Assembly (NCBI GenBank): GCA_015490055.1
Contig: WFYP01000300.1
Coordinates: 1 to 32,066, forward strand
DNA from: Nitratifractor sp.
GTDB taxonomy: Bacteria > Campylobacterota > Campylobacteria > Campylobacterales > Sulfurovaceae
Direction of reading: 5' to 3'
Length of the DNA: 32,066 bases
Under the pieces are notes generated by a model. The model saw only the letters and a program-made list of their open reading frames with translations, made no database searches and had not been told where the DNA came from. This document shows positions 29,401 through 30,174 of this stretch, piece after piece (the stretch's first letter is position 1; each line of letters opens with the position of its first letter). Position numbers and translations under genes: made by a program.

Positions 29401-30174
29401 GAATATGCAAACGGCAGAATGCCAATAGCAATGACAGATAAAAACAACAATAGATACTATTTACACTACGACCAAGTAGGAAGCTTAAGAGCAGTGACCG
29501 ATACGAATGGTAATTTGATTAAAGAGATAACTTATGATAGTTATGGTAATATACTAAACGATACAAACCCAGATTTCAAAGTGCCGTTTGGCTTTGCAGG
29601 TTGGCTTTATGACGAAGATACAAAGTTAGTGCACTTTGGATACAGAGAGTATGACCCGGTAAGCGGCAGATGGTTAAGTAAAGACCCATTGCTATTTGGC
29701 GGTGGAGACACTAATCTTTATGGGTATGTGCTAAATGATCCGGTAAATTTGGTGGATCCAGAAGGATTGCTACCAGAATGGTATAAACAAATGCAAAATG
29801 TATATAACGACCCGCATAATGTAAGAAATAGAGCTTCCTCTCAGCAATACATAGGAAGAGCAATGTCATTAGAACCATTTGGATTAAATGGTAATGGTGG
29901 TATTTCGAATAAAGAAGCCAATAGAAATGATACAATAGCTATTTCTGTGGCTGGGTGTGCAGGAACAGCAAGTTCTGTAGCTGTTTTTGGAGCTAAAAAT
30001 ACCGCAGGATTTATAATTCATATAATGGTAAATTATTATTCTTTACAGCATGATGGACGTGCTAGATATAGAGATACTTCAGCGTATACACGAGAAAAAC
30101 AGATTATTGAAGTAAGCAAAGAGGGCATTGAAAATTTAATTAAAAAGGTACTCACATGGATACCAAAGATATAA
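23455..30174 (+). CDS. RHS/YD-repeat polymorphic toxin, predicted lipoprotein with Ig-like, transthyretin-like and LamG modules
   Basis: 2239 aa. Signal peptide plus lipobox (FIAGC, Cys27). PKD-like domain. Three DUF5011-type Ig repeats. Big_2-like domain. CarboxypepD_reg/TTR-like domain (ITGRVVDENNQPLEGVKV...). Asp-rich Ca-binding stretch. LamG-type domain. About 800 aa of YD repeats. The RHS core ends ...YREYDPVSGRWLSKDP...LNDPVNLVDPEGL, followed by a 134-aa variable C-terminus. Confidence 0.9.
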   Translation: MFASRSVFKRFLVSLFVFAMALFIAGCADAGSDQTLFSGDKVILDGSGSTPSSGYKIIKYSWKQLRGKRVDLKDKNSAKAYFIAPSVSKSERLQFRLTVTEKSSSGRVIKSRDRVNITIKPKDNNNDTTPPVITINGENPYNLEAGNSFSDPGATAVDETDGNVTITKSGKVNSKVVGEYKIIYTAKDKSGNEANATRVVKVVDTTPPAIKILGNNPLTVEYDSNFSDPGVTTSDNAEGNISVEKEGSVDTKTLGEYKINYTATDASGNEANATRVVKVVDTTPPTITLNGDKNISLYVGDSYTEEGASAVDNVDGDINVTISGSVDTSKEGNYTITYTAADKSGNQAQAKRYVEVKKKPVTLQSISISPQNIELRVKGEASFKVLGNYSNGTQKELDGANLSLADSSLASIENSTLKGVQEGNTTLRAELNNHTATANVIVYKELNTSNFNGAEFGSEYTDKIPPNATKEQYDQKRFCMITGRVVDENNQPLEGVKVWLLHHKEYGSVSTDSNGTYVLPSEGGVNYTIRYQKQGYLIVDREFSAPIQDWAVVKEAQLLPKDEKATQIDLNTSKVELHSSTPTVDDRGERSTTLVFNGVSKATVTKSDGSTRELKSFKVRATEFKTLQSMPKEMPSKSAFTYCSDLTIDGVSDDANVSFDKPVVMYVDNFLGFNVGEIVPIGYYDRVDGKWKPSKNGVVVKLLDTDGDGKVDALDSDGDDKPNDLNGDGSFSDEVVGIAGKSGYEPGKTYWRGEITHFTPWDFNWPYAPPKNAKEPVLINPDVNSEPNKEADCQAQGFSHITVKGRVFHEDIPIAGTNLTLHYASNRVSGFKYAISTDINTNELPDSVETAKVEIFVAGKHYEKELHPGDDGHIEYIWDGKDELGNRVSGKVQATIKVTYLYPLVYYSASSDWTYAWNKPGSASTNVIGREKVAYSSVKKLNMNIQAKINYDIAKGWSLSNVNILKDGVVYKGNGTKFKNQFSLQKGLVAYYRFENNTKDSSGLGNNAKLQSGSLEYKKGVIGNAAYFDGTQNIKTPIELTGKDENQYISISFWGKAEDSNHSTFVTNYNIGDGSDSIHLSADKVGITGRFNGYYENGFCYKYKPIYLLSIDNNATDSCGNQDTYETIYDYGSKGVDYTKWHHYTITYDNLYERIYIDGIKVIEKELESNMIGGENKIPKYSRDDSDYDRFLNIGQLNNSFKYPYSMISETMLKGAIDDVRIYKKVLTDNEIFSLYLYGKNNRGVLLSSEEYKIVDKNQIYIFNLKGQHIATKALGTNVTLEQFAYDESGHLTAITDQFNQTTQIIRDERGYPTQIIAPNGQITNLTVDENGDLAEVSYEDGSKYQFSYYAGSLLKDMVDLGGHTIGHLYDKYGRFVKEILPNGGALEFARVKEGNTTTYTQTYPEGDKRVIKDTLLANGDINSTITLPSGDDIYMSFANNYFNKTLISNGVKSAITYSTDSFSKNKTISSKTITMPSGLSKSITYNTSYDGNETVINSKTQTITTNEKTSTITTNYQEGKESITSPMGKSITRNFDIDTLLTKELKFNNLEPINYTYNDKGQITQVTQGDRSVNITYDDRGNIASITNPLGLSTTYEYDNMDRVIKTTYPNNVSLTYSYDNYGNIIKRVVPVNKEHKFNYNFASNPLNYTTPNNNQTSYLYDKANRLRKIKKPDNTQIEYIYNKGRLTQIKSPKETINYTYAFNNLVSSISNGNIELNFSYDGNLLTKQTSSYTQKQISYTYNNDFLVNSITYAGKKEDITYNTDNEAISIGNYQINRDNNGFVSKVNDSNYQKEYSYNNYGEITQIKDNTLTINLTRNKLSQIIKKEEITNNKTKTYEYSYDKLGRLIKVTKDGNIVEEYSYDENSNRISAKINGKNINATYNQEDQLTSYNNTNYTYDKNGNLIKKQNDTNQTIYSYDDFNNLKAVTLPNNKTISYITNPLNQRVAKLINGKIKEKYLWKDLTTLLAIYDKDNNLMQRFEYANGRMPIAMTDKNNNRYYLHYDQVGSLRAVTDTNGNLIKEITYDSYGNILNDTNPDFKVPFGFAGWLYDEDTKLVHFGYREYDPVSGRWLSKDPLLFGGGDTNLYGYVLNDPVNLVDPEGLLPEWYKQMQNVYNDPHNVRNRASSQQYIGRAMSLEPFGLNGNGGISNKEANRNDTIAISVAGCAGTASSVAVFGAKNTAGFIIHIMVNYYSLQHDGRARYRDTSAYTREKQIIEVSKEGIENLIKKVLTWIPKI
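23833..24525 (+). repeat. three tandem ~231-bp coding repeats (DUF5011-like Ig domains) inside the RHS gene
   Basis: Residues ~127-357: DTTPP[VAT]I...G.N....G..F.DPG....D...GN..V...G.V......GEYKI.YTA.D.SGNEANATRVVKVV. Repeats 1 and 2 share an identical stretch, GGAAACGAAGCAAACGCTACAAGAGT. Confidence 0.8.
26407..27162 (+). other. LamG / concanavalin-A-like (Laminin_G_3-type) domain inserted upstream of the YD shell
   Basis: GLVAYYRFENNTKDSSGLGNNAKLQSG...GVIGNAAYFDG... through ...GAIDDVRIYKKVLTDNEI matches the usual LamG_3 start and end pattern. It lies in a visibly more AT-rich block. Confidence 0.65.
29770..30171 (+). other. variable C-terminal (putative toxin) domain after the DPEGL RHS core boundary
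   Basis: DPEGL is encoded at 29755-29769. The following 134 aa (LPEWYKQMQNVYNDPHNVRN...) contain a Gly/Ala/Ser-rich hydrophobic stretch, TIAISVAGCAGTASSVAVFGAKNTAGFIIHIMV. I recognise no catalytic motif. Confidence 0.6.

Follow-up and report, generated by a model that had tools for sequence, protein, structure and literature searches.

What does the tip of a polymorphic toxin do when it matches no credible family? The question is raised by the 3′ end of a large RHS gene on contig WFYP01000300.1, whose 32,066 nucleotides are referred to here as the window. The last 134 codons of this gene (29770-30171) had been described by the original prediction, which was made from the letters of the DNA, as an unrecognisable RHS C-terminal domain with a glycine-zipper-like hydrophobic core and as a possible membrane-targeting toxin. 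The domain is very probably a swappable toxin module with a cognate immunity gene. In sequence it is most suitably classed as a new family, and the system to which it belongs, composed of a YD shell, a polymorphic tip and an immunity gene, is of a known kind. As for its activity, a non-enzymatic toxin that inserts into membranes is the best reading, and we put the chances of this reading at about even.

The limits given for the domain in the original prediction are exact: the DPEGL codons occupy 29755-29769 and are followed by 402 nt (134 codons, 29770-30171) and by the stop codon at 30172-30174. When the residues are numbered from the first position after DPEGL, the domain (pI 9.4) can be divided into three parts:

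29770..29904, + strand: toxin sub-module N (residues 1-45), polar and helix-prone, ending in GNGGIS (from alignments)
29932..30045, + strand: hydrophobic hairpin (residues 55-92), conserved (from alignments, Kyte-Doolittle (KD) hydropathy and, at low confidence, AlphaFold2 (AF2) with a multiple sequence alignment (MSA))
30046..30171, + strand: variable cationic tail (residues 93-134), a basic cluster followed by an amphipathic helix that ends in T-W-I-P-K-I

The small-residue-rich hydrophobic stretch that had first drawn attention to the domain is present (TIAISVAGCAGTASSVAVFGAKNTAGFIIHIMV, domain residues 55-87, corresponding to residues 2160-2192 of the protein) and is retained in 9/9 members of the family. 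Within the 2239-aa protein, a 19-residue KD mean of at least 1.6 is reached only in the signal peptide and in this stretch; its best segment scores 1.66, slightly over the customary threshold of 1.6, and the maxima of the nine family members range from 1.50 to 1.93. The 21-residue run without D, E, K, R, N, Q, H or P is the longest among the 22 ORFs of the window (9593 aa), and all remaining uncharged runs of at least 15 residues in these ORFs belong to signal peptides or to the transmembrane helices of ABC permeases. On these grounds, and given its conservation in the family, the stretch is more than a chance feature. The hairpin consists of a 21-residue segment rich in small residues (55-75), a turn G74-x-K76-x-T78 and a second segment of ~14 residues (79-92, FIIHIMVNYYSL) that includes the invariant N88. 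Sub-module N has unrelated sequence in its place in P0001 and is shorter in P0007 (proteins and loci are given by P and L numbers). At the other end of the domain, residues 109-132 form a C-terminal amphipathic helix with an alpha-helical hydrophobic moment of 0.42-0.47, and the basic tails of P0005 and P0007 are RGRG-rich.

Directly downstream of the toxin domain, and overlapping its stop codon, lies the cognate immunity gene:

30156..30716, + strand: cognate immunity gene, encoding a 186-aa cytoplasmic Sel1/TPR-repeat protein (Pfam Sel1)
30156..30174, + strand: 19-nt overlap of the toxin and immunity genes, dual-coding, read as W-I-P-K-I-stop in the toxin and as M-D-T-K-D-I in the immunity protein
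30654..30713, + strand: C-terminal tail of the immunity protein, NIGILKTLFFMLFGKKGLAD, hydrophobic/amphipathic and conserved in P0009-P0014

The Sel1 family (PF08238) matches the immunity protein over two stretches with an E-value of 1.6e-11 (44.7 bits against a cutoff of 30.7), and neither a signal peptide nor a transmembrane helix is found in it; the lack of a signal peptide and the presence of the hydrophobic C-terminal tail had both been noted before, and the tail is also conserved. A Sel1 orthologue stands directly downstream of the toxin and overlaps its stop codon in eight distinct loci (the window, L001, L002, L003, L005/6, L021, L029 and L030), and six more immunity orthologues are full-length (183-187 aa). 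The overlapping nucleotides read ...ACA TGG ATA CCA AAG ATA TAA in the toxin frame and ATG GAT ACC AAA GAT ATA in the immunity frame. This register is preserved in the clade with 36% identity (L021), so that the WIP motif of the one protein and the MD[TS] motif of the other constrain each other. An orphan immunity orthologue, one of the six full-length ones, occurs in L027 (2109-2669) and in L028 (555-1115), and no remnant of a toxin was detected upstream of it; the RHS island to which it belongs in L027 also contains a HEAT-repeat protein and an orphan fragment of an RHS protein. The tail of the immunity protein, which reads IGNLKFILIFLKNIFKIWKV in P0012, has a best 11-mer hydrophobic moment of 0.31 in the window and of up to 0.68-0.84 in P0012/P0013. 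A role as a helix for peripheral membrane targeting is possible, but the tail could just as well be the helix that caps the repeat stack. When toxin tails and immunity proteins are compared for co-variation, P0006/P0009 versus L029/P0011 fit, whereas P0004/L006 versus L029/P0011 contradict it, the same tail being paired with a different immunity mid-region, a mismatch that possibly results from recombinant orphan copies.

That the domain moves as a unit is seen from the proteins that it terminates. It ends RHS carriers in the window and in P0007/L004 (46% GC), and it ends a second type of carrier, after a fixed VVWLYND junction, in P0001, P0003, P0006 and L029 (the loci with this carrier being L001, L002, L003 and L029). 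The second carrier is weakly DUF637-like, with E-values of 0.009-0.02 that fall short of the Pfam cutoff. Because the domain has been swapped between two unrelated carriers, it is regarded as an active polymorphic toxin. In L005/L006 the second-type carrier ends in another toxin followed by a membrane immunity protein, and then by a truncated copy of the window-type domain, which is a classic orphan-cassette arrangement; orphans of the P0004 type retain the hairpin and the tail and lack the N-terminal piece. Five independent assemblies carry the toxin and immunity pair of the window in identical form, the family spans 30-46% GC, and the toxin is kept together with the overlapping immunity gene even at 36% identity. 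At the loci of the second carrier (L005 476-1826; L002 147-746), the VVWLYND junction, which is analogous to the VENN/ELYN of CdiA, also leads into other uncharacterised tips that are followed by small multi-transmembrane immunity proteins.

The domain is itself a mosaic, with breakpoints near residues 50 and 90 that separate the N-terminal piece, the hairpin and the tail, each of which has its own divergence history. Between L003 and L029, residues 1-92 are near-identical, with a synonymous divergence (dS) of 0.08-0.14, and residues 93-129 have diverged (dS 1.34); the window and L001, in turn, are near-identical in protein over 93-134 and unrelated over 1-50. The tail sub-module recombines separately from the remainder of the domain. 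A frameshift was considered as the cause of the divergent C-terminal half of P0003 and was rejected, as tblastn gave no alternative-frame match. The ratio of non-synonymous to synonymous substitutions (dN/dS) is 0.14-0.76 overall, the distant pair L021 versus L004 giving 0.14 and several pairs 0.4-0.7; by this measure the toxin sequence is coding and constrained.

The relationship of the carrier can be stated more precisely than the generic RHS protein of the original prediction:

23455..30174, + strand: carrier gene, encoding a 2239-aa bacterial teneurin-like YD/RHS lipoprotein (ORF, Pfam, phmmer against the PDB)
29533..29769, + strand: RHS-associated core closing the shell (...YREYDPVSGRWLSKDP...NDPVNLVDPEGL; TIGR03696 Rhs_assc_core, E=3.6e-22)

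Its N terminus is a lipoprotein signal peptide with the lipobox ...ALFIAG-C27, and Pfam assigns to the protein a PKD domain, three Ig-like domains, a teneurin TTR domain, Laminin_G_3, RHS repeats and a teneurin YD shell (TEN_YD-shell 1.6e-32, TTR_TEN1-4 1.3e-13, RHS_repeat 1.6e-38, Bact_surface_Ig-like 7.4e-54). By phmmer against the PDB, residues 473-2105 match the teneurin-like protein BiTLP of B. inaquosorum (9ifo/9pt5) with E=1.8e-191, whereas the Rhs proteins of type VI secretion systems (T6SS) match much more weakly, e.g. Tse5 with 1.9e-20. On the strength of the lipobox and of this E-value, the carrier is better described as a teneurin-like protein with a Sec/lipoprotein signal. T6SS domains were not found in the scanned ORFs of the window (Sox, ABC transporter, alpha-2-macroglobulin, FKBP etc.), and a T6SS Rhs effector was rejected on this ground and on that of the Sec/lipoprotein signal. 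With a shell, a core motif, a modular tip and a linked immunity gene, the system is an RHS/YD polymorphic toxin of the teneurin-like protein (TLP) subtype. The RHS-associated core contains the Asp motifs YDP...KDP and ends at DPEGL, directly before the variable C-terminal domain. Aspartyl autoproteolysis right after DPEGL, which would free the 134 residues inside the shell, can reasonably be predicted because the core aligns to BiTLP residues 2085-2144 and chain 9ifo_A terminates exactly at the aligned DPSGL. Hydrothermal-vent metagenomes are the source of the DNA, the GC content of which is 34%. The Campylobacterota, the phylum to which the organism, a putative sulfur oxidiser, appears to belong from the 34% GC, the Sox genes and the vent origin, are not mentioned in the text of the 2026 TLP survey or in 12 of its supplements in text form (PMC13018210).

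The statement that the domain belongs to no recognisable nuclease, deaminase or other toxin family is borne out by searches of Pfam, NCBIfam, PHROGs and the PDB, by sequence or by profile. The domain alone gave no credible match against Pfam, NCBIfam and the PDB (phmmer), the best being ElbB (E=0.032) and 3ib5 (E=0.4), both of which were taken as chance and rejected as relatives. The family profile had 0 hits in the PDB, and Pfam, run on eight members at E<=10, returned only carrier domains and isolated chance matches to single members. A holin relationship was tested with the toxin family against PHROGs, and nothing relevant was found. The family itself is small: an exhaustive phmmer search of 1.84 billion cluster representatives gave 5 proteins and a profile word-search of 5.8 billion proteins gave 7 relatives, while the contigs of immunity proteins yielded extra copies in L029 (full) and L030 (C-terminal fragment), for a total of about nine relatives on short, mostly low-GC contigs from metagenomes or metagenome-assembled genomes (MAGs). 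A genome scan with the immunity profile returned generic Sel1 proteins alone, at no more than 35% identity, and two metagenome scans gave no further members of the family. AF2 with the single sequence produced a beta-sheet and a C-terminal helix, with the hydrophobic stretch as beta strands (pLDDT 39); with an eight-sequence MSA it produced an all-helical model (pLDDT 48) in which helices 47-73 and 75-94 form the hairpin, at a pLDDT of about 50, and a third helix spans 108-130. Foldseek, run with the MSA-based model against the PDB, reached a best E-value of 8.6, which is meaningless. The structural check proposed along with the original prediction has in this sense identified no enzymatic fold, with models that at pLDDT 39 and 48 are not usable.

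The pattern of conservation points in the same direction as the searches. Eight positions are invariant in the nine aligned sequences (I56, A71, V72, G74, T78, N88, W130 and P132), and G41, S68, S69, K76, R101 and E109 are conserved in 8/9. The invariance of W130 and P132 cannot be assigned to the toxin, since both residues lie within the 19-nt overlap with the start of the immunity gene; the other six of the eight all fall within the hairpin. Invariant Asp, Glu, His, Cys, Ser, Lys or Arg residues are absent from the nine sequences, and the lack of an invariant catalytic-type residue argues against an enzyme. The main clade does have a catalytic-looking block (H84, Q-H-D-G-R-x-R-Y-R), which is replaced in P0003, P0005, P0006 and P0007, while the hairpin, the basic cluster and the Sel1 partner are kept.

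For cleavage, membrane insertion, depolarisation and the action of the immunity protein we infer the following course. The Sec-exported, lipid-anchored carrier would enclose its last 134 residues in the YD shell and cut after DPEGL, as its homologues BiTLP, the Tc toxins and the Rhs proteins suggest. Following delivery, the hairpin would insert into the cytoplasmic membrane of the target cell and could self-associate via its small-residue faces, Ser68/Ser69 and Asn88; polar residues such as Asn are known to drive the self-association of transmembrane helices. The cationic tail would rest on the anionic membrane surface, and ion gradients would be dissipated in the manner of a pinholin or a small pore-former. 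The Sel1 immunity scaffold, held at the inner face of the membrane by its C-terminal amphipathic tail, would bind the toxin and block its insertion or oligomerisation.

What sustains the membrane-targeting toxin of the original prediction is the modular domain, the cognate immunity gene, the conserved hydrophobic core, the lack of an invariant catalytic residue and the precedent of BiTLP, to which Tse5-CT, Tox-WTIP and EsxX are added as further strong precedents; what weighs against it is the zipper, the free-energy sums, the models and the soluble immunity protein, along with several smaller points. The glycine-zipper-like label is apt for loose small-xxx-small patterns, but GxxxG and the strict motifs (G/A/S)xxxGxxxG or GxxxGxxx(G/S/T), the definition of which was taken from PMC12744356, are absent by regular-expression search from the hydrophobic stretch in 9/9 members. 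The best 19-mer has a Hessa sum of +3.0 and a Wimley-White octanol sum of +2.2 kcal/mol (simple sums in both cases), which makes it marginal as a transmembrane helix. The second hydrophobic segment is short and contains His84 in addition to Asn88, and residues 85-105 have a strong beta-type moment of 0.58. The two AF2 models are of low confidence and contradict each other on strand versus helix, and are too weak as evidence for a fold. By region, dN/dS is noisy (0.1-0.9) and not lower in the hairpin than in the rest of the domain. That no catalytic residue is invariant can only be taken as suggestive, the statistic being weak with about nine sequences, among them several orphan or truncated copies. 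Finally, a cytoplasmic, non-membrane immunity protein is unlike those of most known pore-forming interbacterial toxins, and an immunity protein in the cytoplasm usually pairs with a toxin that acts there. Because the immunity protein is cytoplasmic, part of the toxin should be exposed to the cytoplasm.

The location of the immunity protein would fit a soluble toxin acting in the cytoplasm, either a small enzyme or a stoichiometric inhibitor, in which the hydrophobic stretch is a buried core and the Sel1 protein blocks an active site or surface. The cytoplasmic and soluble immunity protein would then be of the kind found with most nuclease, deaminase and ADP-ribosyltransferase toxins, and the beta-sheet and C-terminal helix of the single-sequence AF2 model, the beta-type periodicity of residues 85-105, the positive transmembrane free-energy sums and a main-clade block rich in catalytic-type residues (H84, H94, D95, R97, R99, Y100, R101, E109) are all in keeping with it. 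However, this polar block is not invariant and is exchanged in P0003, P0005, P0006 and P0007 with retention of the hairpin and the Sel1 partner; the conserved core of ~80 residues is small and nearly uncharged over ~40% of its length, segments of this kind being elsewhere in the window only membrane or signal segments, and no fold or family match was found. We regard a soluble toxin as unlikely. The separate recombination of the highly basic tail (93-129), which is RGRG-like in P0005 and P0007, brings up a different division of labour, in which the hairpin is an element for membrane entry or translocation and toxicity resides in the variable cationic tail, for instance through cytoplasmic binding of nucleic acids or ribosomes, with neutralisation by the Sel1 protein in that compartment. 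The cytoplasmic location of the immunity protein agrees with this, and there are parallels in the T6SS DNase Tde1, the translocation of which requires a glycine-zipper segment (PMC10240207), and in the modular entry domains of contact-dependent growth inhibition (CDI) toxins (PMC11630599). Yet the tail, with ~40 residues of non-conserved sequence, is too small and variable for a defined enzymatic warhead, it is the hairpin that is the conserved part, and P0004-type orphans keep hairpin and tail without the N-terminal piece, so that we consider such a division improbable.

A C-terminal extension that is non-functional, decaying or mere filler, with a hydrophobic stretch devoid of function, would be in keeping with a tiny family in which many copies are orphan or truncated on short contigs, and with the dN/dS of 0.4-0.7 in several pairs, which implies only moderate constraint. 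This is very improbable: the domain stands intact as the last part of a complete 2239-aa ORF, it is identical in the five assemblies, it and the overlapping immunity gene persist together at 36% identity and over 30-46% GC, the L021 versus L004 comparison gives a dN/dS of 0.14, and the swap between two unrelated carriers is the signature of an active polymorphic toxin. The membrane-inserting toxin remains the best reading. In its most specific form, which we consider speculative and rather unlikely to be correct in every part, it would be a case of peripheral-membrane immunity to a pore-former: a pinholin-like two-segment toxin would be delivered by a teneurin-like surface protein, the Sel1 protein would dock at the inner membrane face via a MinD-like amphipathic tail and capture the hairpin of the toxin or its cationic tail where this is exposed to the cytoplasm, and the toxin would consist of entry, pore and specificity sub-modules that recombine independently.

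The layout of the domain recalls that of class II holins and pinholins, which are small, with two hydrophobic segments (the first rich in Gly, Ala and Ser) and a basic C-terminal tail, pinholins oligomerising into small depolarising holes. The toxin family shares the two hydrophobic segments, the first likewise rich in such small residues, and the highly basic tail, but no PHROG holin family was matched and the context is that of a polymorphic toxin rather than of a phage lysis cassette. Among the interbacterial toxins, the immunity proteins of colicins are integral-membrane proteins, unlike the Sel1 protein. The closest precedent for the carrier is BiTLP, the C-terminal domain of which is hydrophobic, has one predicted transmembrane segment, is toxic to E. 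coli only if exported and admits propidium iodide (PMC13018210); TLPs of Gram-negative bacteria have been described with a Sec/SPII lipoprotein signal (Raoelijaona et al., 2026; PMC13018210). The carrier studied here is homologous to BiTLP over the aligned shell and of similar length (2239 versus 2237 aa), its DPEGL aligns with the end of the cleaved BiTLP chain (DPxGL), it has the Sec/SPII signal of the Gram-negative TLPs, and its C-terminal domain is likewise small, polymorphic and followed by an immunity gene. It differs in that the C-terminal domains have no detectable sequence similarity, the alignment stopping at residue 2145, in that the hydrophobic segment begins 55 residues past the cleavage site instead of ~21 as in BiTLP, and in its low-GC hydrothermal-vent source and Sel1-repeat immunity protein.

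Tox-WTIP, borne by RHS and PVC carriers, has been predicted to be a pore-forming polymorphic toxin of two helices, the first with RxxR and the second with Wx[ST]IP (Zhang et al., 2012; PMC3482391). The likeness lies in a small, hydrophobic and apparently non-catalytic C-terminal domain on an RHS protein, with two predicted hydrophobic helices and a Trp/Ile-Pro signature. However, the window domain has no Arg in 55-75 and thus no RxxR in its first helix, its T-W-[IT]-P stands at the very end of the protein, not within the hydrophobic helices, and is dual-coded with the immunity start, and the phyletic range is not the same. Membership in Tox-WTIP was rejected, as eight members gave no Pfam match at E<=10 and lack RxxR and Wx[ST]IP; the Pfam library presumably holds a Tox-WTIP model. 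Tse5-CT of Pseudomonas aeruginosa is a membrane-inserting depolariser that is encapsulated by Rhs and delivered by the T6SS via VgrG, its immunity protein Tsi5 being an integral membrane protein with two transmembrane segments (PMC9637101). It, too, is the C-terminal domain of a YD shell, lacks any predicted enzymatic function and has both hydrophobic and amphipathic helices, but for the window domain no sequence similarity to any PDB chain was detected, no T6SS gene is present among the scanned ORFs of the window, and a soluble immunity protein takes the place of the membrane protein Tsi5.

Precedent for an immunity protein outside the membrane comes from EsxX, a membrane-depolarising toxin that is neutralised by the soluble cytoplasmic ExiAB complex through sequestration of its hydrophobic motif (PMC12744356). 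EsxX and TelE share with the window family a hydrophobic segment rich in small residues, but have a true extended glycine zipper, which none of the family has, and a type VII secretion (T7SS)/LXG carrier from Gram-positive bacteria; in EsxX the segment lies near the C terminus, ExiAB is not a Sel1 protein, and ExiCD is also present, whereas no second, membrane-embedded immunity gene is seen at the window locus. A glycine-zipper toxin of the TelE/EsxX type was rejected, the strict motif being absent in nine members. The ionophore toxins among the CdiA-CT domains of CDI systems are predicted five-helix bundles with a polytopic membrane CdiI (PMC11630599). They have in common with the window family a modular N-terminal sub-domain followed by a C-terminal one that is membrane-active or, in the window family, may be so, and here there is also the DUF637-like carrier with VVWLYND (cf. 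VENN/ELYN) and orphan arrays; the difference is that the window family has a single hairpin of ~38 residues and a soluble Sel1 partner. By analogy, the toxin tip may work like Tox-WTIP, the glycine-zipper toxins, Tse5-CT, the BiTLP C-terminal domain or the CDI ionophores despite belonging to none of them.

The toxin cassette is bounded downstream by a palindrome of the repetitive extragenic palindromic (REP) type:

30746..30811, no strand: REP-like palindrome, GGGGTCAGACGTTGAA ... TTCAACGTCTGACCCC, with 4 arm matches versus 0 expected

It is found at intergenic sites in the window (12776-12831, 30746-30811 and ~30891-30958), in L001 (336-401) and in L023 (1722-1802). In L001, a MAG contig, it stands just upstream of an orphan cassette and in L023 downstream of the cassette, and it may mark points of recombination or insertion for cassettes. 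L023 also has an extra orphan RHS C-terminal fragment of 175 aa with a different tip (1202-1729; window counterpart 30717-30745), which lies between the immunity gene and the palindrome; since the window is without this fragment despite an identical toxin and immunity gene, the orphan array differs between strains. Further upstream, the window contains an alpha-2-macroglobulin of 1579 aa and then a YARHG-domain protein (13854-19152 and 21185-23284), with a candidate PBP1C-type ORF nearby on the opposite strand. Alpha-2-macroglobulin and PBP1C are a known pairing, which here adjoins the toxin gene. The region 5811-13746 is a Sox sulfur-oxidation cluster by Pfam, with a molybdopterin oxidoreductase, c-type cytochromes, SoxY, a SoxA-type cytochrome, a 5′-nucleotidase-like (SoxB-like) protein, MOSC and a DsrE-like protein.

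TLPs have been recognised as toxin carriers only recently, and the mechanism is known for few of the payloads at their C termini. The payload family described here is absent from Pfam, NCBIfam and the PDB and is so far confined to vent organisms, which appear to be Campylobacterota; it is noteworthy for its three-piece mosaic toxin and for a cytoplasmic Sel1 immunity protein with a hydrophobic tail that resembles a membrane-targeting one. Should the domain be an enzyme, it would represent a new minimal fold. If it is membrane-active, a compact module of ~80 residues would be added to the small set of non-enzymatic interbacterial toxins, neutralisation of pore-formers from the side of the cytoplasm would be better documented, and the family would offer a simple system for the delivery of hydrophobic cargo by YD-shell carriers.

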